Shown: in pieces, positions 3,341 to 45,932 of the stretch
Layout of the letters: each line of letters starts with the position of its first letter
How positions within the stretch are numbered: the first letter of the stretch is position 1
DNA from: Parachlamydiales bacterium
GTDB lineage: Bacteria > Chlamydiota > Chlamydiia > Chlamydiales > JABDDJ01
Assembly (NCBI GenBank): GCA_041671045.1
Contig: JBAZCF010000004.1
Span: 129,540 to 193,539, forward strand
Direction of reading: 5' to 3'
DNA length: 64,000 nt
Translations under genes and position numbers: made by a program
The notes under the pieces: generated by a model
What the model was told of the DNA's origin: nothing
The model's input: only the letters and a program-made list of their open reading frames with translations
Database searches by the model: none

Positions 3341-3763
3341 ATGTTCATCATCGTTCTTTTAACTTCTACCGTATTGAGTTTCTCTGAAATTGAGCATACT
3401 CCCCCCAAAGAATTAACGGAGATATACAGTGGACAAAAAGTCGCTGTTAGGGGATTTCCTTATGCGACAGAACAGGGGGAGTGGATACTTTCAGATGAAC
3501 CCAACTTACGCTCTTGCTGTGTAGGAAAGGGCCCAAAAGCAGCTAAACAAATCGTCTTACAAGAAAATGCTAAACAATTCACAACTTTTCAAGTGATAGA
3601 AGTGGAAGGTCTTTTAGCCGAGAGAGATAATCGCCTTGTCTTGCAGGACTGGAATACCGTAAATCCAAAAGGGGCCATCGCCTGGGGGTTCTATGCGCTT
3701 CTTATGCTTTCAGTCTTGGCAGGATTTCTTGGCCGTAAAGCCTTTCAATGGTATCGACGATAG
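3341..3763 (+). CDS. Hypothetical small protein with a hydrophobic N-terminus and a C-terminal TM anchor
   Basis: 140-aa ORF. N-terminal hydrophobic stretch MFIIVLLTSTVLSF; C-terminal segment AWGFYALLMLSVLAGFL followed by basic residues. Its 3' end overlaps the convergent ribE by 62 nt. No family recognised. Confidence 0.45.
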   Translation: MFIIVLLTSTVLSFSEIEHTPPKELTEIYSGQKVAVRGFPYATEQGEWILSDEPNLRSCCVGKGPKAAKQIVLQENAKQFTTFQVIEVEGLLAERDNRLVLQDWNTVNPKGAIAWGFYALLMLSVLAGFLGRKAFQWYRR

Positions 3764-4331: not shown

Positions 4332-4459
4332 AATTCCCTTATTCTAAGCATTTAAAAACTACACTTATAAGAAGATTTGCTAATTAAAATAAAGAGGTGT
4401 TTATAACGTCTCTGAAAAATTTGAATATAGATAAGTTTTTTATCACAATAAGGAAAAGT

Positions 4460-5887
4460 ATGGCAGATGCGTTAGGTAATTCATTTTTAAGTCTTTATTC
4501 TTCCTCAGATTCAACTTCATCCTATATCGAAAACTATGTACATGAAGACTCCATAGAAATCAGTGACACAGCTGCCGTCAAGCCGGCCCATTCCATCCAA
4601 GAGATGAATTTGTTTTATGAACGGGTGCAGGCGGCTAGTCGCTCCCTTTCAGACTCCTCCATTGCTTCAATACCTAAACCTGTGATGGAGAAGCTTTATA
4701 GACTGCAACTCCTTTACAGTTCAAACACATCGGACGATGCCCTTGAAATGGCGCAATTTGCTGTTAAGCTGGAAAATGAACCCTTTATCCCCAAAGATAA
4801 AGCTTTAAACTTTGAAATCCTGCCTTCAGAGAGTTCCGATATATTGAAAGCCTTCGTAGAATATTCCTATGACAAAAAGAAAAGGTTGAAACATCAGACC
4901 TACATTTTACGTCTACATGGGGTTGGTAAACACAAAAAAATGTACCAAGCCACCCACCTGCGCACCTATCAGCAAAAAGCAATTTTAATTCTAGATAAAA
5001 GTCAGATCTCTAAGAAAGAATTAGAAAATGAACTTGCTTTTCAGGATATTCTCAAAAAAGTTAAAGGATGTGTAACAGCAAAAAAGATATTTACAAACGA
5101 TTCTTACGTTATATTAATGACAACTCTTTGTAATAAAGGAACTTTGGAAAGAGAGATCAAATTAACCGGAGAATTATATGAAAGAAGAGTTTTGTTTGAG
5201 CTTTATATTTTAAGTGGTATCTTCGCACAAATGCACAATGAGAAAGTCCTTCATGGTGATATTAAACCTGACAATATTATGTATACTAAGTCACACAAAT
5301 ATAACTTGATGGAACTCAAAGTCATCGATTTTGGATCTTCAAGGTTTATCACTAAAGAGGGTATCAACCAACCTCTGGGCGGTCCCGTATTATTCCTTCC
5401 CCCCGAAGCTACGAAAATTCGCATCAAAATATTAGAGCTTAAAGAATTGGAAGCTAACTTAGACAAACTGAAAAAAGCATTGGTCAGAAAAAATGCTTTG
5501 AAGCGATATAAATGTAAGTTAAGCAAAAAGAGAAGTGAAATTCAAAGAGCAAATGCTTTAATTACTTCAAAACTAGATGTATATATGTTAGGGGAGACTT
5601 TTTATATGCGTATAAACGGGGGCAAACTACCTCCGGTCCAAGCTGAATTTGCAGCGAGAATAAAACAAGGGACAGCCAGTGGAAAAGATGAAATTATTGA
5701 GATTTATTTAAACATGACGGGTAAAAATATGCCTTATAAAGAGCCCTCTCGCCGTAAGTTTTTACAACACCTGATTTGGAGAATGCTCCTGCCGGATCAG
5801 AACCGCCGTCCATCCATGCACCAAATCCACACAATGCTTTCAAAAAAGTATCCTTTTCTTGAAGCTGAGAGCATCAATTGGTACTAA
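4460..5887 (+). CDS. Eukaryotic-like Ser/Thr protein kinase domain protein (atypical, coiled-coil insert)
   Basis: Hanks-type subdomains: degenerate Gly loop LHGVGKHKKMY, catalytic loop HGDIKPDNIM, VIDFGSS (DFG), LFLPPE (APE-like), DVYMLGETFY (DxWxxG-like), late RRPS. ATG 4460 (MADALG) follows AAGGA (4450-4454); the ORF opens at GTG 4397. No signal peptide or TM. AT-rich gene. Confidence 0.8.
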   Translation: MADALGNSFLSLYSSSDSTSSYIENYVHEDSIEISDTAAVKPAHSIQEMNLFYERVQAASRSLSDSSIASIPKPVMEKLYRLQLLYSSNTSDDALEMAQFAVKLENEPFIPKDKALNFEILPSESSDILKAFVEYSYDKKKRLKHQTYILRLHGVGKHKKMYQATHLRTYQQKAILILDKSQISKKELENELAFQDILKKVKGCVTAKKIFTNDSYVILMTTLCNKGTLEREIKLTGELYERRVLFELYILSGIFAQMHNEKVLHGDIKPDNIMYTKSHKYNLMELKVIDFGSSRFITKEGINQPLGGPVLFLPPEATKIRIKILELKELEANLDKLKKALVRKNALKRYKCKLSKKRSEIQRANALITSKLDVYMLGETFYMRINGGKLPPVQAEFAARIKQGTASGKDEIIEIYLNMTGKNMPYKEPSRRKFLQHLIWRMLLPDQNRRPSMHQIHTMLSKKYPFLEAESINWY

Positions 5888-5892
5888 TTGCA

Positions 5893-6465
5893 CTAGAAGT
5901 GCATTCCTATTCCTAAGCCTGTTTTAAACCCACCTAGATCAACATGTGTTTGGTAGTTATTTGGTTGGTATAAATAATCAAAGAAAGTATCTAGAAATAG
6001 GTTGTCGGTAAAATAATAATAGAAGCCTGATTTCAATACCCCACCATAAACAAGTCTAGAGACTTTTTCGGATTGGTTAAAAAGATGGTTTTTTAATTCT
6101 ACCCGCGCAAAACTAGCCCCTAGCCCTAAATAAACACTTAATTGTTCCGATAATACGTAAGGAAGTTTGATTCCTAAACTCGTATTAGCAATGGAAATTC
6201 TAGTAGGATCATTCAACCCTATTGAATGGCCATGCTTGCTGAACCAATCAAAATTAACCCATCCCTGAAAGCAATTGTAAACAGAGGTGGAAGCTTCCAC
6301 TTGGAAAGAGGGGCCGACTGTTCCATAAATTTCTCTAAATCGTCCTGAGCTATGCCAAAATGCGGCTGTACGAAATTCAATACTGTTTTGTGTTTCAGCG
6401 GATAATGGGAAGGACCCCATCCAAAATGAAAGAAGAAATAGAAGCTTAGTAGTGGTCTTATTCAT
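5893..6465 (-). CDS. Small outer-membrane beta-barrel protein (OmpA-TM/OmpW-like)
   Basis: Signal peptide (LLFLLSFWMGSFPLSAE), alternating hydrophobic/aromatic pattern throughout, and a terminal aromatic residue (…GLGIGMHF), as in OMP C-terminal signatures. The start overlaps the upstream gene's stop by 8 nt. Confidence 0.6.
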   Translation of the reverse strand: MNKTTTKLLFLLSFWMGSFPLSAETQNSIEFRTAAFWHSSGRFREIYGTVGPSFQVEASTSVYNCFQGWVNFDWFSKHGHSIGLNDPTRISIANTSLGIKLPYVLSEQLSVYLGLGASFARVELKNHLFNQSEKVSRLVYGGVLKSGFYYYFTDNLFLDTFFDYLYQPNNYQTHVDLGGFKTGLGIGMHF

Positions 6466-8053
6466 TAATAATCCTTATGGAAACTGGTGTACTCACTAGA
6501 TTAGCAGCATTTATAGCAAAAATTTTATAATGCGAGGCATCTTTTTTTGAACGGAGTAGGATCTCATAAACGAGTGGAGAACTAGAAGGAATGACCGCCA
6601 CTATTTGTCCATTCAGAGTGATCTGATAGAAAAGAACATCCCCTGAAGGGCTGGGATTCCACGTTACCTCAAGCACATATTTCGTGCGGTTCAAAAACTT
6701 ATTTTTGATGACGTTGCCCAGAAAGAGCCCAGGAGGAAGAGGGATAGGCGAGACAGGCGCATCAGGTATTTGAATATTTTGGGTGACTGTAGCGCTAGGG
6801 CCCCCATTATTGCTTACAGATTGGCCTGTAAAGGTTTGTGTTGTAGAAGTCCCACCTGAATTTGTCACAGTAAGAGTGACCGTGTAGGATCCGCCACCTA
6901 AATAGGTATGTTGAACCGGATTGGAAGTTGTTGTGATGATAGTGCCGTCACCAAAGTCCCAAACGTAACTTGCAATTGTCCCTACATTCGTTGTGGATGT
7001 AGATATAAAAGTTGTTGGAGATAAAGCTTGAGCCGGTGCTGCTACAAAAGAAGCGATAGGGGCTTGATCAGGGGTTATCGCTACAAAAGCCTGAAATCCG
7101 GTGACGCTCGTTTGAGTTATGTTGGTTGTGCCTACGGCTACAGTTGTAAAAGTATTGCTGTTGGCATGAGTGAAAACGGCTTTTTGACTATCTGGAGAAA
7201 TCGCAACACCCTGCTGAGTATAATTTCCTGGAACGGTGTCAAACGGTATGTCCACGGTTGCATAGCTTGACAAATTGAGGGCTGTTCCGTAATTCACATT
7301 CTCATTTGCTATATATGCCCACAATCCATTGGCAGAAACTGCAATATTAGTAGGCTGTGCATTGGGGGTGATAGGAATCGTCTGAGAAACGGTTTGGGTC
7401 AGTAAATTTATTTCATAGACCTTATTATTTATCATGTCTGTGACGTAGGCCAATTGCCCGCTTGGCGCCAATGCAATACGTGTCGATCTGCCAGGCACGT
7501 TAATAGGAAGTCCAAATACATTCCCTGCGGTAGTCATACTTAGAATAGAGGATGTCTGTGTAAGATAGATTGTAGAACCGTCAGGCGATATAGCCACAGA
7601 ATTGGACTGAATATTGGTAGAAATGGGAATTACCGTGTATGTACTGCTCGCTAGATCTAATTTTAGAATTGTATAAACACTCGAATCATCGACCGCCGTA
7701 ATATATGCTGTCGTCCCATCCGGTGTGATAGCAATACTAAAAGGGGTTTGAAGAACTCCACCCTCATTGAGAGAAATAGTATTTATAACCGTTTGTGTTG
7801 CGAGATTCACCACGGTTACAGTGGAAACAACATTTTGGTTAATGACATAGAGTGTAGCGGCGTCGGGGGTGATAGCCAGTGCTTCACTGCGCCCACCTGA
7901 GATAGGTAGCCCTGCAGTTTCTGTGGTCACATCAAAAGTGATAACTTGAAAGTTAGATTTATCTGCAGCGTAGGCAAACCAATCCGCCGCAGCTAAAGGA
8001 GTAAAAAATAAATATGCTGAAATGATGTATAAGGAGAATAGTTTAAACCTCAC
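6458..8053 (-). CDS. Secreted YVTN-type beta-propeller repeat protein with a PKD domain
   Basis: Signal peptide. Repeated ~40-aa units with the I(T/S)PDG..(A/I)Y(I/V)T signature (ITPDAATLYVIN, ITPDGTTAYITA, ISPDGSTIYLTQ, LAPSGQLAYVTD, ISPDSQKAVFT). PKD-like block YVWDFGDGT…YTVTLTVTN. GTG start at 8053. Confidence 0.8.
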   Translation of the reverse strand: MRFKLFSLYIISAYLFFTPLAAADWFAYAADKSNFQVITFDVTTETAGLPISGGRSEALAITPDAATLYVINQNVVSTVTVVNLATQTVINTISLNEGGVLQTPFSIAITPDGTTAYITAVDDSSVYTILKLDLASSTYTVIPISTNIQSNSVAISPDGSTIYLTQTSSILSMTTAGNVFGLPINVPGRSTRIALAPSGQLAYVTDMINNKVYEINLLTQTVSQTIPITPNAQPTNIAVSANGLWAYIANENVNYGTALNLSSYATVDIPFDTVPGNYTQQGVAISPDSQKAVFTHANSNTFTTVAVGTTNITQTSVTGFQAFVAITPDQAPIASFVAAPAQALSPTTFISTSTTNVGTIASYVWDFGDGTIITTTSNPVQHTYLGGGSYTVTLTVTNSGGTSTTQTFTGQSVSNNGGPSATVTQNIQIPDAPVSPIPLPPGLFLGNVIKNKFLNRTKYVLEVTWNPSPSGDVLFYQITLNGQIVAVIPSSSPLVYEILLRSKKDASHYKIFAINAANLVSTPVSIRIINE

Positions 8054-26170: not shown

Positions 26171-27526
26171 ATGGCTAGTGTAATAACTTCGTGTTTAAAG
26201 ATCTTTAGTAATTCAAATGAACAGACGTTGCCGGAAACAGGCAAAGGCCCTTCTCCTACTGTTCTATGCAAGTCGCTCATTATTTATAAGGGGGATGCTA
26301 GCAAAAATGTTCTTAGAAAAGCTAGATCTCTTGCAGAAACCGGAGTCATTGTTACGCTTCAAAGTGAAATTGAACTAGGAAAATCTAAAAGATCGCAATT
26401 TTTCTTAGCACGTCTTTTTTACAGCTGCATGGATTATTTAGGGTATTCTAACGAAGCGCAAAAAGAGGTAATCCTCAAAAAAGCTATTTTATCTCTAGCA
26501 TATGGAATATTGTGTTCTGAAAAGACTGTGGGCGATGAATTATTTATAAATGCTGAAGGTTATTTTAAAGATATCAAAACAGAATATTTATCAGCTGCAA
26601 TCGAAAACCAGAAGTTCCCTACCTCTAAAATAAGGACTATTTTCATTGAAAGAGGTGCCATCGATCTAAAAGTTATTTTTGTGGGGACGACTGATTTTGA
26701 AATTGGGCAGCTTTTGAATGATTTTGCAAAGAATCCGGACCAACTGACGAATATACGTTTTGGGTTGGAATTTCAACAGAGAATTGAGGGTAAAGATTGC
26801 AAAGTGGAAGGTAATGAGTTAAATCTCCTGCAATATCTTTTAGTAAAAAATTCCACTTTAGCAAAACAATTATTAAGATTAATTGAAAAGTTCCCTAAAG
26901 TTGAAAAGAAATTTCTTTATCACGAATGCACTGTGTGGACAGACGGAACTAAGAAAAAATGCTCTGATACACTGTCATTTGTCGTGAATGCATCTCTCAA
27001 TGAGCCTTTAATCTTTATATTAAATTTATTTGCTAAGAATTCGGATCAATTAGCGGAGATGCGATTTGATGTGAAATTTAAGCATAAAATTGAAGGCGAT
27101 AATTGCGATGTGGAGGGTAGACAGCTCAACCTTTTGCAATATCTAGTTGCAAAAAACTCCACTGCAGCAAGGCATCTATTATATTTGATTAGAAACTTCC
27201 CTGAAATTGAGAAAAAATTTCTTTCTCATGAATGTTCTATTTCGATCAAGGGAGCTGTGAAGAAATGCCCTGATACGATGTCTTTTGCCATGAGTATCTC
27301 TCAGCATAAGGTTAGCTCTTTTAAGCTGCAAATGACTAATAAAATTGTAAAACTATCAATGATTGAAAAAACAGACGGCACACTAGTCCAAATAGGTCAA
27401 CTTCATAATAAGTATTTAGGATGGCCTGAAGGCAAATTTCATCCCCAAGAACGATTATATTCCAACCAAGCCATCACTCAGACGGTAGGGGATCGAAATA
27501 AGCTGCTTGAGGTAATTCTAAAATAG
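26171..27526 (+). CDS. Hypothetical protein with an internal tandem ~100-aa duplication
   Basis: 451-aa ORF with no signal peptide or TM. Residues ~181-283 and ~284-378 are repeats (see the repeat feature). AT-rich. Family not recognised. Confidence 0.65.
   Translation: MASVITSCLKIFSNSNEQTLPETGKGPSPTVLCKSLIIYKGDASKNVLRKARSLAETGVIVTLQSEIELGKSKRSQFFLARLFYSCMDYLGYSNEAQKEVILKKAILSLAYGILCSEKTVGDELFINAEGYFKDIKTEYLSAAIENQKFPTSKIRTIFIERGAIDLKVIFVGTTDFEIGQLLNDFAKNPDQLTNIRFGLEFQQRIEGKDCKVEGNELNLLQYLLVKNSTLAKQLLRLIEKFPKVEKKFLYHECTVWTDGTKKKCSDTLSFVVNASLNEPLIFILNLFAKNSDQLAEMRFDVKFKHKIEGDNCDVEGRQLNLLQYLVAKNSTAARHLLYLIRNFPEIEKKFLSHECSISIKGAVKKCPDTMSFAMSISQHKVSSFKLQMTNKIVKLSMIEKTDGTLVQIGQLHNKYLGWPEGKFHPQERLYSNQAITQTVGDRNKLLEVILK
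26711..27304 (+). repeat. In-frame tandem duplication (2 x ~103 codons) inside the 26171-27526 CDS
   Basis: Unit 1: LLNDFAKNPDQLTNIRFGLEFQQRIEGKDCKVEGNELNLLQYLLVKNSTLAKQLLRLIEKFPKVEKKFLYHECTVWTDGTKKKCSDTLSF. Unit 2: ILNLFAKNSDQLAEMRFDVKFKHKIEGDNCDVEGRQLNLLQYLVAKNSTAARHLLYLIRNFPEIEKKFLSHECSISIKGAVKKCPDTMSF. Roughly half of the positions are identical by hand alignment. Confidence 0.8.
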
Positions 27527-38261: not shown

Positions 38262-41200
38262 TTAGTTAGGGACAACCTGTAATTTGTTTTTGGTAAAATG
38301 CAGTAGTTTCTTGCACATGGATATTATAATTTGAGTATCCTGATCTAGGAGAGGGGCGTTCTTTAACTTTAAGTCGAGTTTTACTTTAAGTTCAGAAATA
38401 CCCGCAATAGTTAAAAGCTTAGGCTCATCAATGAAGGATTTCAGTAGATTCAATGCAAGCCCGTCTCCATTCATTAAACTTTCTACCCATAATTTAAGGC
38501 ATGCATTTTGCTTGTTCTGGTCTAGGTAAAGTTCATTATTATCTTCTGTTTCCTTCCAAAGAAATGAGGTTAAAATCATCCAGCCTCTTAATTTAGGTTC
38601 GATATCTCCAGGGGTATTAAGCAAGGAAATTTGATTTAATAGTAAATATTCAAAATAATTTTGTAATTGATGCGAATCTTCAATCCCCTTAAATACCTGG
38701 GTTTCAATACAGATATCTAAAATTGCCAGCAGCTCAAGTTCAATTCGGTCCTCTATTTCTCTATCTTTAGGTTTAGTTTGAATAAGTTTAGAGAGGATTT
38801 TCATCAATTTTTGTTTTAGCTGATCATATTTGAATATTTGTATGTGCTGTTTATCAAGAAAATGAAAAAGTCCTTTGCAGGCTGCATGAGGGATATAGTC
38901 TGATATGTCCAGCATCCGAAGGAGAGTATTAAAAATATAAGCATACATCTCAACGAGGCCGGGGGAGTCTGCTTTATAAAGATATGTTTGTAATCCTGCT
39001 AGCAGGCACATATGGATGTAAACATTTCCCCAACACTCCCTTGCTGTAGTATAAGTCCATATATTGACAAAGGCAGTACCTGCTTCATTTATTATTTCTT
39101 TCTGCGATCGACTATTCCAATCTAACAATGCGAAAGAGATGTTAGGGGTTATCCCTTTGATGTTATAGATCCTATTGCATTCGAAAATAAGGTTTGACAT
39201 ACAATAGAGTAGAGAATACTTGTCCACTGATTTTGAATTAAATATCTTACTCTGCATTTCTTTATATTTATTAATATTAGTATCTTCTCCGAGGCGATGG
39301 ATTTCGAAATTCATCAATAGAATGTTGTAGGCTAAGTAGAGTCCTTTACCGTGTCTAGGAGTATGCGTTAGCATTTTTTGAAATAATGAAAATGCAGCAG
39401 CTGTATGTTTCTTTTCATTAGCGGGATAGCGGTGCGCTTGATCTATTTCAGTTTCCAAAAGCAGGAGAAGGAATGCGAATTTTGGATCGTTTACCCAATA
39501 GTACCTGCTTAGGCTTCCCGGCTTATAAATGGATGAGAAGTGAATAGAAATATTCTGGGTCAGTGTATTGACTACACTGCATATCACATTTTGGTTGTAA
39601 TAGGATGCATCGCCGGAAGAGTTTTCAACCAATAGTTCGGCAATATGTTTAAATACAAAATAGCTTTTGTTCGTGGAATGATGGACGATTACCTTCGGAT
39701 TGCTAAGAACTTTCCTCTTAAAAAGCACATTAGCAAATGTTTTTGCACGTAAATTAAAGCCGGAATCTGACAAGGAGATTAGGAACAAATGAACAAGGAC
39801 TTCAAGTTTATATCTGAAGCCATTGCTGTAGGAGGGATCATACATATTTATACTTAAACAGTATCCCATGGCATTTTCTATCAATTCTTTTATTTTAGAA
39901 TTATTTGCCGGAGTTTGCTGCTGTTCTCTAAGCTTGCAAATACTTTCAAGGGGAATTAACAATTGAACGAGGATTTGGGAGTTGCATGAGGGTGGTGGTT
40001 TATTTTCTATAATGCAGGAACTAATATGTTCGTGCATACTCTGGGGAAGGATGTCTAAGAGGCTCCGCGGATTAGCAAAAACTTTGCTGGGATGATTAAT
40101 ACTGCAGTGCACTAAGCGGGAACATTCAATGGATAAATAGGTATCATTCGCTAGTGTAAAGATATTTCTAAAAGAAGTTTTTCTCTCTTCCATAGTTCCA
40201 TATTTCATTGTAGAAGCGAATATAGAATTCAGAAAGTGGCTGAAAATAGGGAGGAGGTTATCGCTAAGTGGGGAGGCTTCAATGATTGCAGCATAGATTT
40301 TCTCTACAGTCATTTCGATGAAATTAGGCCACTCAATGGGGTTATTAAGATTAATAGTATTTAAAAAGAACTCCACCTCTTTGAACAGAATTTCTGTCTC
40401 CAGAGTAGTATCCGGGGGGTTATGGGAAACAAGAACCGCAAATTTTTGGAAACCAAGGCATAGAAGGTTTGTGCCTAAAGTAAAATTTATCCCGGTACGA
40501 TGGGAAGGGTGTATTTGCAAGAAATAGAAAAGTGATTTTGTCAATCTAGACATGGCGACAGGCTTGCAGGTATTAGGGAGAAGCTCGCAAATGGTAGTGT
40601 AAACATTTGAAAAAGTGTTTACATCGGTGTTTTCAAAGTCCCTAAAAGCGAAATAATAAAGCCTGTGAATCGAACGGCTTAAGCAAGCAGGATGTGATTT
40701 ACGTAAATAATGAAATGTAAGCCAGAAAGAGGAGATGTTTTCTTCAAAAGTGGTGAGTCTAATTTCTTGACTGTCTGTATCTAAGTTATTTAAGAAGAAG
40801 CTCAAAAGGCGATGATATTCATTATTCAAAGGATAGAGCTGATTTTTCAAACACAAAGATAATATGCCCACAGCGATAGGGATAACTCTGCGGCATAACT
40901 TCTCATCATCCATAGCAGGATGAAAGAAAAGCCTTTCGAGTAAGTCTTTAAGAACACTTATATAATCTAAGTTATCCTTCAGGGCATTATAATACTTAAG
41001 ATTTAACTGGAAGAGGTAGTCTATGAATGCAATTTGACTTTGTGCACCAGTAAGATCATAACATTGCTCAAGTGCATCTAAAGTTTTTTTATCAAGATCT
41101 TGTGCGTTTCCACTGTTTAAATTGTAATATTGCGACGGGGTTAAAAATCCTTTAGGGCTTAATAATACATCTAAGAAAAGATTGTTCAACTGATTCATAT

Positions 41201-44200
41201 GACTAGGCATATCTTTGAAAGGACTGAAGGTAATTTCAAAATCGGTATGTATTTTAATTTGCTGAGTAAAATCACGTGAAGCCAAAATACGGGATACAGT
41301 TACCTCCACAGCAGCCTGGATTAACTTAAAAGCTTCTGTAAATAATAGAGGGTGGTTATTGAAATAGATAATGAGATGCATCATCAGGGCATCATAGAAA
41401 GGGTCTGTGTGGGAATGGGCGGAATGGAGCATGTCAAACAAGGTATTATACCATAATGAATCCAAGCGGGCTTGTACTGATTTGCCTAAGGCCTTATGCA
41501 GTAAAGGAAAAATATAGGGACAGTTTATGACTGCAGAAAGAGGTGCAGTTTCTTCTAAAATATTAAAAACGTAAGGTGCAAGTATTTTAGGGATCTCTTT
41601 AATATATTTTGCACAGTAGGAGGATATAAAACTGATTTGAATTTCTTTTGCTTTTTGAATGTCCCCATTTTGGAAGGTTGCTTGGACGATCCAAGGGAAA
41701 AATCCTGCAAGAACAGTCTGTTTATAGAGGGCTTTTGATTTTTCAAAGATCTTAAAAAGATGGATGGCTAATTGCGCATCTAGTTTCTTTGGCCATTTTG
41801 TAGCATTGTCGAAGAGAAGGTCTATGGATTGTTTATTGTATTTAGGATGCTTTTCAACCGTTATTAAAATATATGCGCAGCACACAATCAATACATTTTG
41901 ATAGTTCTTCTGAAAAGCAAGCGGAATAAGAACTTGTAAAATAGAATGTTGCAGCGCAGGTTTAAATTTATAGCGTCCTGCCTCGTTAAGCACTTCAAGA
42001 ATAAAATCTTCGGAAGAAGCTTCTGTGCATTGGAAAAGTCTACAAAGGATATTTCTTCTTTTGTCAGGAGGAATCGTTGTCTCAGCACGGAGACACTTAA
42101 ATAGGTCTTTAAGGCTGTCAAATAAACTTATGAGTTCTGAAGGTGCATGAAGGCCAAGTGCCACAATAGTTTGATTTGATGTTGGCTGGGAAGATGTCTT
42201 CCAAATTGCGAACGTATGGACTGCTAGAGTTTTTTTTCCTTTGTGTTCAACCCATTTCCACAAGCAATCCCAATCGGAGCCGTTCAAAAGAGGCGCGTAC
42301 TTTTTTATGAGATCCGGCATTTTGGGGTGGGTAAAAGTAAAATCTGCCCAAAGTGTTCTAAGAGAGATAATTTTGCTTTCATCCGAAGATGTTTCATTAT
42401 TAGAATCCAGCAGGTAAACGATTAACTGGTTATAGTCATTATTTTTCAGGGCTTCGCTTAAATTATATTCGTAGTGTTTCGTTATGCGTTTGTCATTAGG
42501 AAATAGGTGTTTGATCGAAGTGAGGAATTTCCAAGGGATGAGATTATTGCCATTCAATAGTAAAGAAATAATCTTTAATAGGGGTTCGTACTCGTCAGTC
42601 TTAGCAGCACTTTTCTGAATATTTTGTTTCTGTGCAGCGCGTACAACCAGCAGGTGCAGAGCAGGGTCATCAGGTATTTTCTCCATAAATGCCAGCATAA
42701 GACTAAAAGTTTCACAATTGCTAAATGAAGGAGTGGCATTTGCCGTTTGGAACCACTCTAAGTAAACATTTGGATTAGCTGAAATCTGCTGTAGGGCTAG
42801 GGAAATATATAATTCTCTTTGGGATGTCGAGAAAGTCTTCATTCTATTGTAAAGGCTTATGAAAGTGGGATTAGCAACTGTAACATTCTTAGAGGCCTCG
42901 ATTTGGAGCGCTTCCAGCAGGCAGTCTGTTTTTAACTCTTCATAAACTAATAAAGCGTTTTCCTGATGAAGTTTTGCATCGTCTCTATGTCTTGCGGAAA
43001 GTAGTAGATGATTGGAAAAAGCAGACCATTCCTTGGACGCTGGTGTATGTGCTTTCAAAGTGGCCAGAGTTTTTGCTATGGCTGTGGATAGATTTAGTGA
43101 TTCAAGAGTGTCTTCTGTTACCAATGTACGGGCAATTTCTAGAAATAGAACGTAATTAGATTCATTGATCAGATTGCTATCCCTTTTCAGGGCAGGTGTT
43201 AGTAGGGGTGTTAATGAAAAACTATTTCCCACGTTCTGAAGAAATTTTATCGTTTCATTTCTCAGCAGATCAATTGCAGTGACATCCTTAAATAAAGGGT
43301 GACTTTGAGCCTTCAAAAGAAGAGCATATAGTTTAGGTGCAGAGGGTTGTATTTCGGTGAACTTTTCGATGATTTTCAAGATGACACGATATACTTCTAA
43401 ATTATTTTCTGAGGGGATCGGAGTTACCGAAAGCCAATCCGTAGCCATTTCTGATAAGGCATAAAGGCATCTTTTAGATATAACTTCAGGTGTTTCATCA
43501 TCTAATAAGATGAAAAGACGCCTCCAATAGTTTAAATAAGATGGCACGAGCTGTTTGAAAAGCCTGCTCTTGAATATTTCTACAACGGATGCAAATTCAT
43601 TTTTCCAGGGAAATTTCGATCCCAATTTTGATATTTCATCGGCAAGCAAAATGCCTTGTCGACAAGATTCTTCCAACTGTTGGGGATTTTGACTATTGAA
43701 TGTCTTTTTTAATTTAATGAAAGCTTTTAGATAGTTGTCTCGAAGGGGTGCCTCCTCAAAGGAAACGTTAATCGTCCGATGTGAACATAAATCATATAAT
43801 TTGCACCAACAGGAAATCTTATGTGATGCACTAGTCATAAGGAGTCTAAGTTTATCGGATAGATATTTTAAGGAAGTTGTATCTAACGTCCCTTGGTTTA
43901 CAGCAGTCTGCAATTCATCAATAGCGGTTTCAGGATAGTAAAAAAGCATCCTGCAGATGAACCTCAGTTCAAATGCGGGTTTTTCAATCAGCTGGACCCT
44001 CCACAGTTCAAACGCAAATGCACTGAGTTGCGGGTCTCCGCTATAGGCAAGAGCAAGCATCCAACCCTGAGGAGTACACTGTATTAAATACCCTAAAATG
44101 ACGGAATGCATATGTTTCGGGCTGACTGATAATAATAACGATTTTCCGACTTGTATTGCTGTTTCACGTATCAGAGGATGATTTGCATTCATCACATGCG

Positions 44201-45932
44201 GAAGTATAGTCATGCATAAGATTTCTTCAGCCTTCTGAACCCCTAGAGCGCGCAGCTGCATTAACAAAGAAAGGGCGATAAGTTGGAGTATCTTATTTTC
44301 AGGCTTGCCCCAGCTCTGAACTTTGGCTAAAAGGGCTTCAGCTTCAAATACAATGCGCTCTTTGTATTTACTAAAAACCGGGATTGTACTTTCTGTTGCA
44401 ATGGATAAAGAAAATACAGAAGTAAAAATATCTATCAAGAGGGGAGAGTATTCATCTAAAAAAAGATGAACCCTTTCAGTAGAGGTAGCAAGGGCGTTTG
44501 GGTCCCACTCCAACAAGATTTTAAAGCCTGTGTCATGAATGAGCTCAAGGAAGGGTTCATCGAATATTTTTGTAAGATGGACTTTCGAATTGTGCATTGA
44601 GGGGCATGCCAGCATAAGCCCAATACTTGCATTTAACATCAGAGCTATGACTGAAGCAGGAATTCCGCTATGCCGTGCATTGAAAAGGGGATCACTAGCT
44701 TGGGTGTTTTCCGAGAACAACTTTTTGAATGCAAGTTGAGTATAAGGTTTCAATCCTTTTTGAAAATTTACCTCCCTCTCGCAGATGAGCTCAAAGGCTA
44801 AGAATAGAACAAATTTTATCTCGCTAGTATTGTCTGATTGCTCGTTAGTAATGTCTGAATGGCTGATCACATGATTATGGATGTATTCTGCAAATTTGGA
44901 AGCCCATTTTTTTTTATCATGGGATTTATTGGAAGCCCATTTATTTTTATCTTGGGATTTATTGAGAGCCCATTTTTTTTTATCTTGAAATTTATTGGAA
45001 TGAGCGAACAAATAGGATGTCAGCATAGAACGTTTATAGCATTTGTTTCCGTTAAGAAAGCCCCAAATAAGGCCTAGAAGGGCGAGGTAATTTTTATCAG
45101 CGGCCTCATCATCGTACATGATTTTAAGCAGTAAGTCTGCAAATGCGCGCCGGTGGCTGTTGGGGTATCTGCTAAGGGGGGTAATATGTAATTTGTCTTC
45201 ATATAAGCTTGTGGGTGTAATAGCAAAATGGAACGCACTATTTCTAAAAAGTGAGAAATTATCCTCCTTATAATACCCTAAACCATAATCAATACGGTCT
45301 TCAGGGATTTTAATAAGCAGATTGGGTTCTTCTTCTGATATGGAAGATTTGAGCTCTTTCCCTATAAATGCACAAGCAGCTGTGTTAAGAATGAAGAGCT
45401 GTTTTTGGGTTACCGGCTTGGAAAATTCAGCGCGTATGTCTAAATCTTTAGGTAAGACATCAAGGCGTTTTTCGGTGTTTGCATTCAATAAGGATGGCAC
45501 CTCTATCAGTAGCTCCCTAACATATGTCTTTCCTGCAGCTTTTGGGGAGGTGGAACCGATTATCTTGAAATGTTTAATGGGGTTTCCAAGGGCTATAGAG
45601 GCTTCATATTGGGATTTTAAGAAGTCCGAGATCGTTTTGGAATTGTTGGTAGATTTTAAGGTGCGATTTAAGATGCTTTGAAGATTGATCTCAGCTTCTT
45701 CCAGGGCTTCTTCAGGAGGCAGAGGCTTTAAATATTCGGCTTTTAAGGAATAGGTTTCATCTAAATAGGGGAGAGCGTTTGCAATTTCCTGATCTTCTGG
45801 TGTTTCAACGGGATGAAATTTACCTTTATGTACTATAGGGATAGCTTCTGCAGAAGGAGAAGAAGATGAGATTAAGGGATTTTGATGGATAGGGGAAATA
45901 GTAGAGACGGCCGAAACAATCGTTATAGACAT
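38262..45932 (-). CDS. Giant protein, 2,556 aa, paralog 1 (no recognised family)
   Basis: Uninterrupted 7.7-kb ORF. Collinear paralogy with the adjacent 3,131-aa ORF from the first 15 residues to near the C-terminus. No signal peptide or TM seen. Leu/Lys/Ile/Phe-rich and helical-repeat-looking. AT-rich. Confidence 0.8.
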   Translation of the reverse strand: MSITIVSAVSTISPIHQNPLISSSSPSAEAIPIVHKGKFHPVETPEDQEIANALPYLDETYSLKAEYLKPLPPEEALEEAEINLQSILNRTLKSTNNSKTISDFLKSQYEASIALGNPIKHFKIIGSTSPKAAGKTYVRELLIEVPSLLNANTEKRLDVLPKDLDIRAEFSKPVTQKQLFILNTAACAFIGKELKSSISEEEPNLLIKIPEDRIDYGLGYYKEDNFSLFRNSAFHFAITPTSLYEDKLHITPLSRYPNSHRRAFADLLLKIMYDDEAADKNYLALLGLIWGFLNGNKCYKRSMLTSYLFAHSNKFQDKKKWALNKSQDKNKWASNKSHDKKKWASKFAEYIHNHVISHSDITNEQSDNTSEIKFVLFLAFELICEREVNFQKGLKPYTQLAFKKLFSENTQASDPLFNARHSGIPASVIALMLNASIGLMLACPSMHNSKVHLTKIFDEPFLELIHDTGFKILLEWDPNALATSTERVHLFLDEYSPLLIDIFTSVFSLSIATESTIPVFSKYKERIVFEAEALLAKVQSWGKPENKILQLIALSLLMQLRALGVQKAEEILCMTILPHVMNANHPLIRETAIQVGKSLLLSVSPKHMHSVILGYLIQCTPQGWMLALAYSGDPQLSAFAFELWRVQLIEKPAFELRFICRMLFYYPETAIDELQTAVNQGTLDTTSLKYLSDKLRLLMTSASHKISCWCKLYDLCSHRTINVSFEEAPLRDNYLKAFIKLKKTFNSQNPQQLEESCRQGILLADEISKLGSKFPWKNEFASVVEIFKSRLFKQLVPSYLNYWRRLFILLDDETPEVISKRCLYALSEMATDWLSVTPIPSENNLEVYRVILKIIEKFTEIQPSAPKLYALLLKAQSHPLFKDVTAIDLLRNETIKFLQNVGNSFSLTPLLTPALKRDSNLINESNYVLFLEIARTLVTEDTLESLNLSTAIAKTLATLKAHTPASKEWSAFSNHLLLSARHRDDAKLHQENALLVYEELKTDCLLEALQIEASKNVTVANPTFISLYNRMKTFSTSQRELYISLALQQISANPNVYLEWFQTANATPSFSNCETFSLMLAFMEKIPDDPALHLLVVRAAQKQNIQKSAAKTDEYEPLLKIISLLLNGNNLIPWKFLTSIKHLFPNDKRITKHYEYNLSEALKNNDYNQLIVYLLDSNNETSSDESKIISLRTLWADFTFTHPKMPDLIKKYAPLLNGSDWDCLWKWVEHKGKKTLAVHTFAIWKTSSQPTSNQTIVALGLHAPSELISLFDSLKDLFKCLRAETTIPPDKRRNILCRLFQCTEASSEDFILEVLNEAGRYKFKPALQHSILQVLIPLAFQKNYQNVLIVCCAYILITVEKHPKYNKQSIDLLFDNATKWPKKLDAQLAIHLFKIFEKSKALYKQTVLAGFFPWIVQATFQNGDIQKAKEIQISFISSYCAKYIKEIPKILAPYVFNILEETAPLSAVINCPYIFPLLHKALGKSVQARLDSLWYNTLFDMLHSAHSHTDPFYDALMMHLIIYFNNHPLLFTEAFKLIQAAVEVTVSRILASRDFTQQIKIHTDFEITFSPFKDMPSHMNQLNNLFLDVLLSPKGFLTPSQYYNLNSGNAQDLDKKTLDALEQCYDLTGAQSQIAFIDYLFQLNLKYYNALKDNLDYISVLKDLLERLFFHPAMDDEKLCRRVIPIAVGILSLCLKNQLYPLNNEYHRLLSFFLNNLDTDSQEIRLTTFEENISSFWLTFHYLRKSHPACLSRSIHRLYYFAFRDFENTDVNTFSNVYTTICELLPNTCKPVAMSRLTKSLFYFLQIHPSHRTGINFTLGTNLLCLGFQKFAVLVSHNPPDTTLETEILFKEVEFFLNTINLNNPIEWPNFIEMTVEKIYAAIIEASPLSDNLLPIFSHFLNSIFASTMKYGTMEERKTSFRNIFTLANDTYLSIECSRLVHCSINHPSKVFANPRSLLDILPQSMHEHISSCIIENKPPPSCNSQILVQLLIPLESICKLREQQQTPANNSKIKELIENAMGYCLSINMYDPSYSNGFRYKLEVLVHLFLISLSDSGFNLRAKTFANVLFKRKVLSNPKVIVHHSTNKSYFVFKHIAELLVENSSGDASYYNQNVICSVVNTLTQNISIHFSSIYKPGSLSRYYWVNDPKFAFLLLLLETEIDQAHRYPANEKKHTAAAFSLFQKMLTHTPRHGKGLYLAYNILLMNFEIHRLGEDTNINKYKEMQSKIFNSKSVDKYSLLYCMSNLIFECNRIYNIKGITPNISFALLDWNSRSQKEIINEAGTAFVNIWTYTTARECWGNVYIHMCLLAGLQTYLYKADSPGLVEMYAYIFNTLLRMLDISDYIPHAACKGLFHFLDKQHIQIFKYDQLKQKLMKILSKLIQTKPKDREIEDRIELELLAILDICIETQVFKGIEDSHQLQNYFEYLLLNQISLLNTPGDIEPKLRGWMILTSFLWKETEDNNELYLDQNKQNACLKLWVESLMNGDGLALNLLKSFIDEPKLLTIAGISELKVKLDLKLKNAPLLDQDTQIIISMCKKLLHFTKNKLQVVPN
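44896..44994 (-). repeat. 3 x 33-bp in-frame tandem repeat with A9 homopolymer tracts (coding strand)
   Basis: Plus-strand units at 44896-44928, 44929-44961 and 44962-44994 (TTGGAAGCCCATTTTTTTTTATCATGGGATTTA and variants). They encode NKFQDKKKWAL / NKSQDKNKWAS / NKSHDKKKWAS. T9 runs at 44907-44915 and 44973-44981. Confidence 0.85.

Follow-up and report, generated by a model that had tools for sequence, protein, structure and literature searches.

A small family of chlamydial protein kinases that lacks the beta3 lysine and keeps an invariant lysine in the glycine-rich loop

A protein kinase gene at positions 4460 to 5887 of a 64,000-nucleotide stretch of contig JBAZCF010000004.1 from a Parachlamydiales bacterium (the whole stretch is hereafter the window) encodes a member of a very small family, in which the lysine of the beta3 strand has been lost and a lysine of the glycine-rich loop, Lys159, is invariant. 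On balance, the product is probably a soluble, active Ser/Thr kinase of the non-RD type with a CAMK-like fold, in which Lys159 would act as a relocated lysine, as in the WNK ('with no lysine') kinases, and a helical hairpin inserted in the C-lobe would serve as a docking or oligomerisation element. An initial annotation, made from the sequence alone, had described a eukaryote-like kinase with a C-lobe insertion and had interpreted it as a translocated, host-directed enzyme. That observation was largely correct and incomplete, and its effector interpretation is plausible and unproven; the main interest of this small chlamydial family appears to lie in the WNK-type relocated lysine and the C-lobe hairpin.

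The open reading frame (ORF) encodes a genuine protein kinase domain, and the Pfam model PF00069 (Pkinase) matches the protein with 84.7 bits (cutoff 31.7, E=8.8e-24); in the Pfam scan of all 475 amino acids (aa), no second domain was found above cutoff. The strings listed by the initial annotation (HGDIKPDN, DFG, PPE, DVYMLGETFY, HGVGKHKKMY and a Lys/Leu-rich segment) were all recovered where it had placed them. Conservation was counted in a 12-sequence L-INS-i alignment, which comprises the ten core members of the family and two further kinases, P0055 and P0102. The coding sequence and its catalytic elements are the following.

4460..5887, + strand: kinase coding sequence, 475 aa, eukaryote-type Ser/Thr protein kinase (non-RD, HGD), from the ORF list, Pfam, AlphaFold and Foldseek
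4919..4936, + strand: glycine-rich loop GVGKHK (residues 154-159), with Lys159 at the third-glycine position (PKA G55, WNK1 K233), the proposed relocated ATP-anchoring lysine
4979..4999, + strand: beta3 strand AILILDK (residues 174-180), with Leu176 at the position of the VAIK lysine (PKA K72); K180 corresponds to the non-catalytic PKA K76
5030..5032, + strand: alphaC glutamate E191 (PKA E91), in predicted helix 185-198, presumed salt-bridge partner of K159
5252..5275, + strand: catalytic loop HGDIKPDN (residues 265-272), with catalytic Asp267, Lys269 and Asn272 and a glycine instead of the HRD arginine (non-RD), from direct reading and the family alignment
5327..5407, + strand: activation segment from DFG (290-292) to PPE (314-316), with 21 residues between them, from direct reading
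5576..5605, + strand: start of alphaF, DVYMLGETFY (residues 373-382; subdomain IX), with Asp373 (PKA D220) invariant in the ten core members and replaced by Glu in P0055 and P0102
5807..5809, + strand: Arg450 (subdomain XI, PKA R280), partner of the APE glutamate and the sole invariant arginine

It had been stated that all core Hanks subdomains could be read and that the glycine-rich loop was degenerate. The first statement fails in subdomain II, where the catalytic lysine is missing and Leu176 stands at its position; the loop string itself was correct, but the lysine at its third-glycine position is invariant across the family. The beta3 strand AILILDK pairs residue for residue with AMKILDK of PKA and AVKVIDK of RSK1, and also with YAAKII of PLK2, while the loop GVGKHK was matched to GVGSYS of RSK1, GKGGFA of PLK2, GKGKFG of AurA and GRGSFK of WNK1. 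K159 aligns with K233 of WNK1, and the beta3 residue of the family (Ser/Leu) with C250 of WNK1. The register in which L176 corresponds to PKA K72 and K159 to G55 was obtained in four independent alignments (RSK1; PLK2, CaMK2; AurA, WNK1, PKA, CaMK2). In the profile comparison, the scores of WNK1, PKA, PknB, CaMK2 and Aurora A are approximate; the register of the lysine swap is independently backed by alignments to PDB entries.

Lysine occurs at the beta3 position in none of the 12 aligned sequences (the column reads L, Q, S, S, S, S, V, Y, T, V, L, L), and K159 occurs in all of them as the only invariant lysine of the whole protein. Also invariant in all 12 are the alphaC Glu191, Asp267, Asn272, Asp290 and Gly292 of the DFG motif, Glu316 of the APE motif and Arg450. 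Among the 118 nearest non-family kinases, placed in the same model alignment, 112 have the beta3 lysine, and the position of PKA G55 is G in 60, S in 38, A in 17 and T in 1, with K only in P0055 and P0102. In these alignments, then, the family has lost the VAIK lysine and has kept K159 and the catalytic residues invariant. The protein thus carries the WNK signature (no beta3 lysine, and a lysine at the third glycine of the loop) and departs by Leu176 from the canonical VAIK lysine of eukaryotic-type kinases. Both the loss and its WNK-type replacement were overlooked by the initial annotation, which had named lack of kinase activity (a pseudokinase) as a refutation of its own reading, and they bear directly on that point.

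By analogy with WNK1, K159 may functionally substitute for the beta3 lysine. Its position in the WNK1 alignment, at the start of beta2, suggests that it would reach into the active site, anchor ATP's alpha and beta phosphates as Lys233 does in WNK1, and pair with the invariant alphaC Glu191, and phosphotransfer would then be carried out by the intact Asp267/Asn272/Asp290 machinery. Non-RD kinases are in general independent of activation-loop phosphorylation. Since the catalytic loop here is of the non-RD type (HGD), the family would presumably be active without such phosphorylation, which its sequence suggests it does not need; within the family, HxD has G, C, L, K, N or A in its middle position, and R in no member.

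Several observations weigh against this reading. Loss of the beta3 lysine is a classic criterion for a pseudokinase; the threonine of the P+1 loop (PKA T201) is Gly308 in this protein and the position is variable across the family; the catalytic-loop Lys269 is kept in 9 of the 12 sequences and is His in P0007, P0009 and P0035, so parts of the family may have drifted; and the alignment behind the structure prediction discussed below holds 10 sequences only. Phosphotransfer could accordingly have ended with the loss of the lysine, which is absent from every member, leaving a scaffold or a nucleotide-binding switch, possibly secreted. There is a chlamydial precedent in Pkn5, a substrate of the type III secretion system (T3SS) whose gene lies in a T3SS operon; it is found in 93% of chlamydial genomes and is regarded as a pseudokinase without catalytic residues (PMC5177608, PMC8242063). 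Such a fate is nevertheless unlikely for the present family: the equivalents of PKA E91, D166, N171, D184 and G186 and the compensating lysine are invariant at 18-47% identity, a pseudokinase family typically shows decay in several motifs (Table 1 of PMC12599244), and WNK kinases are active with exactly the same configuration. Because all catalytic residues and one new lysine at the WNK position are fixed at such divergence, the family appears to be an enzyme under purifying selection rather than a decaying pseudokinase, and we infer from its sequence that it is active.

Some variation of the motifs is confined to parts of the family. DFG is kept in 9 of the 12 sequences, with DLG in P0006 and DYG in P0007 and P0035. 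P0007, P0009 and P0035 form a subclade in which the catalytic loop reads D-L-H-x-x-N in place of D-I-K-x-D-N (His at the equivalent of PKA K168) and the C-lobe insert is shorter (40-42 aa); P0009 retains DFG, and all three retain K159, E191, D267, N272 and D290. The substrate chemistry of these three members may have shifted.

The family shares with the WNK kinases of animals and plants (WNK1 K233/C250) the missing beta3 lysine, the lysine in the glycine-rich loop, the retained alphaC glutamate and the otherwise intact catalytic residues. Min et al. reportedly described, in 2004, extra N-terminal strands in the N-lobe of WNK1, as the predicted model of the present kinase also shows. Unlike WNK kinases, the family kinase has HGD for HRD and DFG for DLG, shows no autoinhibitory or CCT-like domain in the Pfam scan, is bacterial, and carries a 45-aa helical hairpin after the APE motif. 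Specific sequence kinship is also missing, since the family profile gives WNK1 43.7 bits, the same as PKA (43.6) and below AurA (67.5), PknB (52.4) and CaMK2 (51.8), all of these being approximate scores. Against the PDB, the top matches of the family profile are PLK2 (90 bits), CaMK2, twitchin, CDPK, ULK, MARK, SIK, DAPK and Aurora, and no WNK is among the top 60 (at least 68.6 bits); P0102 gives B-Raf, ULK2 and CDKs as its best PDB matches, likewise with no WNK among the top 60 (at least 46 bits). Foldseek with the predicted model retrieved NUAK/MARK, MELK, SIK3, ASK1, ULK1, DAPK3 and Aurora (TM-target 0.65-0.79), with a probability of 1.00 to many kinases.

These comparisons bear on whether the gene could be a diverged eukaryotic WNK that was acquired from a protist host with its lysine arrangement inherited. 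A catalytic loop of the form K-x-D-N is found in WNK and STE kinases, and the family has it; the loops GKGSFKQNYKA of P0006 and GEGTFKTVYSG of P0102 resemble GRGSFKTVYKG of WNK1, and one member has DLG. The nearest outgroups are eukaryotic as well: all named nearest non-family database matches are eukaryotic proteins, from Corchorus, Lagenidium (an oomycete), Citrus and the ciliate Nyctotherus, together with proteins annotated as CaMK I/IV. WNK descent is quite unlikely even so, given that WNK1 scores no higher than PKA, that DFG is retained and WNK accessory domains are absent, and that no WNK-like protein appears among either set of top 60 PDB matches or, apart from the family and P0055/P0102, among the best 150 matches of the exhaustive search described below. 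CAMK-like kinases (MARK/NUAK, SIK, MELK, ULK1/2, PLK2, CaMK2, DAPK3 and Aurora A) are the best profile and fold matches, and differ from the family in having the VAIK lysine, HRD, a GxGxxG/S/A loop and no hairpin between alphaEF and alphaF, at an identity of 17-20% to the kinase. The scaffold is therefore best read as eukaryote-like and CAMK-like, and the relocation of the lysine as apparently convergent with WNK, because the overall similarity is to CAMK-like kinases and not to WNK.

WNK kinases have been described as the only functional family of eukaryotic protein kinases (ePKs) without the beta3 lysine (PMC1821047). A review from 2025 on pseudokinase families of bacteria names WNK, POMK, ULK4 and the predicted DLHK as precedents; its text does not contain 'Chlamydi', and WNK is mentioned there solely as eukaryotic kinases (PMC12599244). 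A literature text search for bacterial WNK-like kinases found none. In POMK/SgK196, ULK4 and the bacterial DLHK, as is proposed for the present family, a positive charge is supplied from the glycine-rich loop or beta2 in place of beta3 (PMC12599244); ULK4 is a pseudokinase, and DLHK has arginines, a degraded DFG and a fusion to helicase domains, whereas the family keeps the E91 equivalent, DFG and HxD. POMK lacks the alphaC glutamate, has a DLD motif and uses mannose as substrate. Since POMK without a beta3 lysine uses a glycine-loop lysine (PMC12599244), and the family lacks the P+1 threonine that is specific to Ser/Thr kinases and shows weak, sub-threshold Pfam matches to ABC1, Kdo and APH (11-18 bits), a sugar, a lipid or another small molecule could be imagined as the substrate. 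This is extremely improbable: E191 and the DFG aspartate are kept here, the D-I-K-x-x-N loop, the pair of APE glutamate and Arg450 and the alphaF aspartate are hallmarks of protein kinases, and the Pkinase score far exceeds those of the small-molecule kinase families.

The extent of the family was determined by an exhaustive HMMER search of 1.84 billion cluster representatives, in which 10,627 kinases were found at E<=0.001 and merely 5 at E<=1e-30. Nine proteins (P0002-P0007, P0009, P0024 and P0035) match in one stretch through the insert, giving a family of about ten members, as clusters at 50% identity, with 18-47% identity between them. A word-indexed search, with the single protein or with the family alignment, retrieved three family members only. 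Leave-one-out models were scored by the best domain, as full-sequence scores add up in multi-domain kinases, and gave 200-305 bits to the ten core members and at most 112 bits to non-family kinases. The family is real, well separated and very small, and was not described before. Its members come from Parachlamydiales metagenome-assembled genomes (MAGs; P0001 and P0024), from one MAG labelled Verrucomicrobia (P0004, locus L012) and, for the rest, from metagenome contigs. When 185,579 GTDB species representatives were scanned with five sequences, 76 loci were returned, of which L012 was the sole family member and the remainder were generic matches to the catalytic loop. The contig of L012 (JAEYWL010000059.1) is labelled 'Verrucomicrobia bacterium', which places the family in a second phylum of the Planctomycetes-Verrucomicrobia-Chlamydiae group or reflects an imprecise MAG label.

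P0055 (L009, 2316-3758) and P0102 (L011, 419-1489) are bacterial kinases with the same lysine signature. Their glycine-rich loops read GNGTFKT or GEGTFKTVYSG, beta3 reads VAILE, the catalytic loop IYGDLKPxN, and the insert has 22-23 aa; P0055 adjoins sodA, sua5 and sufSBDC, and P0102 adjoins a gene with a weak AAA domain, both bacterial contexts. They were considered as a sister clade of the family and rejected as such, the leave-one-out models failing to separate them from generic kinases. From their motifs, they may be either a distant branch or a second, independent shift of the lysine.

An AlphaFold model of the kinase was built from a 10-sequence family alignment, and reached a mean predicted local distance difference test score (pLDDT) of 78.9 and a predicted template-modelling score of 0.77, with canonical kinase elements following an N-terminal extension. 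The regions outside the kinase core are the following.

4460..4663, + strand: residues 1-68, predicted disordered, Ser/Thr-rich N-terminus and putative, possible secretion signal (pLDDT <50)
4637-4657, + strand: SRSLSDS (residues 60-66), within the disordered N-terminus; the same ASRSLSDS occurs in P0002 and a similar ISRSFSEN in P0003
4667..4894, + strand: residues 70-145, predicted folded extension before beta1, lying against the N-lobe, with helices 73-85 and 91-105 and strands 118-122 and 129-137 (pLDDT 80-90)
5408..5575, + strand: residues 317-372, insert between APE and alphaF, predicted antiparallel helical hairpin (315-339, turn, 344-366) with pLDDT of about 90 and a net charge of +13

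The insertion of about 45 aa reported by the initial annotation is borne out by the spacing between the APE Glu (E316) and the alphaF Asp (D373), which is 56 residues as compared with 11 in PKA. All ten core members carry such an insert, 40-63 aa long, and the structure prediction places it as a confident hairpin between APE and alphaF. The insert had been called a coiled coil; its helical nature agrees with the AlphaFold hairpin, but a crude test for 3.5-residue hydrophobic periodicity over the whole insert gave no heptad signal. Sequence and charge of the insert vary across the family, from +13 to -8, and it is strongly basic only in the kinase and in P0002. By established kinase architecture, we take its site to be the alphaEF-alphaF junction, next to the P+1 loop and the alphaG surface. 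In the predicted model, the hairpin would project from this junction of the C-lobe beside the substrate-binding surface, and the most economical inference is that it may be a substrate-docking or oligomerisation element.

At the other end of the protein, the region before the kinase domain was put at about 170 aa; it is closer to 145 aa, and only residues 1-68 of it are predicted to be disordered. The folded part is partly conserved in the family (F109, P111 and F118), and the hidden Markov model of the family aligns from about position 109 even in P0102. A Ser-rich start was correctly noticed, with a fraction of Ser plus Thr of 0.33 in the first 30 residues compared with 0.15 +/- 0.09 for the other ORFs of the window; across the family, the mean fraction is 0.19 (p = 0.09). 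The SRSLSDS segment loosely resembles what we assume to be an RSxSxP-type motif for phospho-dependent (14-3-3-like) binding, which is speculative. No transmembrane (TM) segment was found in the protein (maximum 19-residue hydropathy 0.67), and with no further Pfam domain present, the reported lack of TM and PASTA regions agrees with the present results.

The protein was likewise held to differ from membrane-anchored or sensor-linked bacterial kinases, and it has neither TM segment nor PASTA or SUMF1 domain; NCBIfam PknB_PASTA (NF033483) gives 28.2 bits (cutoff 450). The family kinase has neither the TM segment nor the PASTA repeats of PknB, and chlamydial PknD is membrane-integral (PMC5177608). 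Pkn1, a soluble kinase of the septum that is required for division, has an N-terminal kinase domain with the canonical K42 and a C-terminal SUMF1-like domain (bioRxiv 10.64898/2026.09.24.754023). The family kinase resembles it in being soluble and of Hanks type, and differs in that its kinase domain begins at about residue 146, lacks the beta3 lysine and is accompanied by no match to PF03781 (SUMF1). In comparison with Pkn5, it is also chlamydial, soluble, of about 480-500 aa, with an ePK-like domain missing one or more canonical catalytic residues, and a candidate effector. Unlike Pkn5, from which it is set apart by locus and distribution as described rather than by sequence, it never adjoins T3SS genes in nine genomic contexts and is extremely rare, and all of its catalytic residues except the beta3 lysine are conserved. 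The kinase is thus not Pkn1-, PknD-, PknB- or LegK1-like and is not at the Pkn5 locus.

A kinase from a Parachlamydiaceae MAG (L015, 4987-6624; CAVUZO010000012.1) was tried as a Pkn5 reference and rejected, as its loop is a normal GGGTFG, its score to the family is 48 bits and it lies in no T3SS operon. The catalytic loop of this 545-aa protein reads HGDIKPDN, a long insertion rich in Lys and Glu is predicted between its beta3 and alphaC, and its gene is flanked by genes for a DEAD helicase, carbonic anhydrase, NrtR, a GNAT protein and an MFS transporter. It seems that several eukaryote-like kinases with helical insertions, unrelated to one another, occur in environmental chlamydiae.

Two kinases delivered into host cells, LegK1 (Legionella Dot/Icm) and XopAU (Xanthomonas), are alike in concept, being eukaryote-like Ser/Thr kinases. 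The NCBIfam scores (LegK1 24.4 against a cutoff of 550, XopAU 12.9 against 450) lie below cutoff, making the family kinase a member of neither, and its own secretion is putative. An anti-phage defence kinase was also considered and rejected, the scores being far under the cutoffs (MAD6 of MADS 30.6 against 460, PglW of BREX 23 against 990) and the neighbours being housekeeping genes.

In the window, the kinase ORF is open on the + strand from GTG 4397 or ATG 4460 to 5887. One further element precedes it.

4450..4455, + strand: Shine-Dalgarno-like AAGGAA, 4 nt ahead of ATG 4460, from direct reading

Translation likely starts at ATG 4460 rather than GTG 4397, because of this AAGGAA, because the same 475 aa are given by a public (NCBI/JGI) protein annotated as 'MAG: protein kinase [Parachlamydiales bacterium]', and because the alignment to P0002, a homolog with 50% identity, begins at the Met of ATG 4460. 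A promoter and terminator scan at the gene gave no signal beyond chance. Judged by its geometry, the gene is monocistronic: it diverges from ribE (Lum_binding) upstream and converges with the following gene, in line with the report that it sits alone. Its neighbours had been given as ribE and an outer membrane protein (OMP) operon, of which ribE stands and the OMP operon is weakly founded: ORF 5893-6465 has sub-threshold matches to OMP beta-barrels only, and ORF 6458-8053 encodes a PKD/beta-propeller protein. Further neighbours in the window are genes for an ABC-F ATPase, metK, the PKD/beta-propeller protein, murI, a LysM protein, pal and tolB. The gene was rightly called AT-rich (GC content 37.3%, compared with a gene mean of 44.6% in the window, z = -1.4), but this is common to several other orphan genes of the window and not peculiar to the kinase gene.

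The locus of P0002 has the order ABC-F, metK, small ORF, ribE, kinase, murI, with the kinase gene directly abutting murI, and that of P0006 (25% identical) has metK, small ORF, kinase. Other members lie beside HSP70/SNF2 genes, beside opp and adenine deaminase genes, or among orphan genes with another kinase, and P0009 lies in a gnd-amiA-murE-ftsI-rsmH region. Near P0024, a second Pkinase-domain gene (L088, 8928-10985; 685 aa) is found 4 kb downstream, in a region rich in small ORFs without Pfam matches. In the window, two genes at 5893-8053 on the - strand (a 190-aa protein with a signal peptide and a 531-aa protein with PKD and beta-propeller domains) separate the kinase gene from murI; both are missing at the syntenic P0002 locus (L001), which resembles a local insertion/deletion difference. 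A 140-aa ORF at 3341-3763 (+ strand) has no Pfam match, a hydrophobic N-terminus and a TM-like segment at residues 111-132 near the C-terminus, and shares 62 nt with the 3' end of ribE, which lies on the opposite strand. Since its position is conserved in L001 (139 aa) and L007 (132 aa), this ORF is probably a genuine gene.

The other low-GC genes of the window (35-38% GC), at 12210-13490 (-), 13587-14876 (-), 26171-27526 (+), 38262-45932 (-) and 46040-55435 (-), are all without a Pfam match. Two of them are tandem paralogs (27.6% identity over 423 aa, E=2e-41), and another two are giant ORFs in tandem, 2556 and 3131 aa long and likewise paralogous (26% identity across the N-terminal ~1045 aa, E=3e-90). 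Their products have N-termini rich in Ser, Thr, Ile and Val without signal peptides (e.g., MSITIVSAVSTISPIH and MASPTIVSGNSISPV), similar in flavour to the N-terminus of the kinase, and these genes may represent one common class of lineage-specific proteins that are possibly secreted.

Where the kinase acts is a separate matter from how it works. More speculatively, it is possible that the disordered N-terminus acts as a signal for type III secretion and that the substrate is a host protein. Pointing toward such an effector are the soluble, eukaryote-like nature of the protein, its disordered Ser-rich N-terminus, a low GC content like that of the Pfam-less lineage-specific genes of the window, and a rare, patchy distribution. 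Weighing against it, no gene for a T3SS apparatus component or chaperone is adjacent in the nine family contexts, the locus is syntenic and flanked by housekeeping genes in P0002 and P0006 and is not an island, and the Ser/Thr-rich composition of the N-terminus is not significant across the family.

The lack of adjacent T3SS or chaperone genes in the nine contexts would also suit a cytoplasmic kinase that is not secreted and regulates the bacterium's own physiology (envelope, peptidoglycan or division) by the same catalytic mechanism on bacterial substrates, a role that is possible and somewhat doubtful. The locus beside housekeeping genes is conserved over deep divergence, Pkn1 offers the precedent of a soluble septal division kinase (bioRxiv 10.64898/2026.09.24.754023), and peptidoglycan or division genes are nearby in two contexts, in convergent orientation: murI, the LysM gene, pal and tolB in the window, with murI abutting in P0002, and amiA, murE, ftsI and rsmH near P0009. 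This adjacency is, however, convergent rather than operonic, and it is absent in other members (those beside opp/adenine deaminase, HSP70/SNF2, orphans or sodA/suf). The family is far too rare for a core regulator, with 5 sequences at E<1e-30 in 1.84 billion and one genome among the GTDB species representatives, and its orphan-like low GC content and the long disordered N-terminus also speak against an internal role.

Taken together, it is possible, as a tentative reading, that a chlamydial lineage independently reinvented the WNK solution on a CAMK-like scaffold, producing an active enzyme with a hairpin as docking module that is delivered into protist hosts, and P0055/P0102 may be a second independent case. 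WNK kinases are the textbook exception to the indispensable beta3 lysine. If the present interpretation is true, the family would be the first of 'with-no-lysine' protein kinases in bacteria, and a second, bacterial and apparently convergent case would make relocation of the lysine to the glycine-rich loop a repeatable evolutionary solution. It would also caution that loss of the VAIK lysine alone is no ground for a pseudokinase label, as applied in bacterial surveys and in the Pkn5 literature, and would provide a compact, soluble bacterial model for studying the relocated-lysine mechanism. Should the kinase be an internal regulator near peptidoglycan and division genes, it would extend the emerging story of Pkn1; should it be a translocated effector, it would enlarge, by a new class of kinase, the repertoire with which environmental chlamydiae manipulate their hosts.

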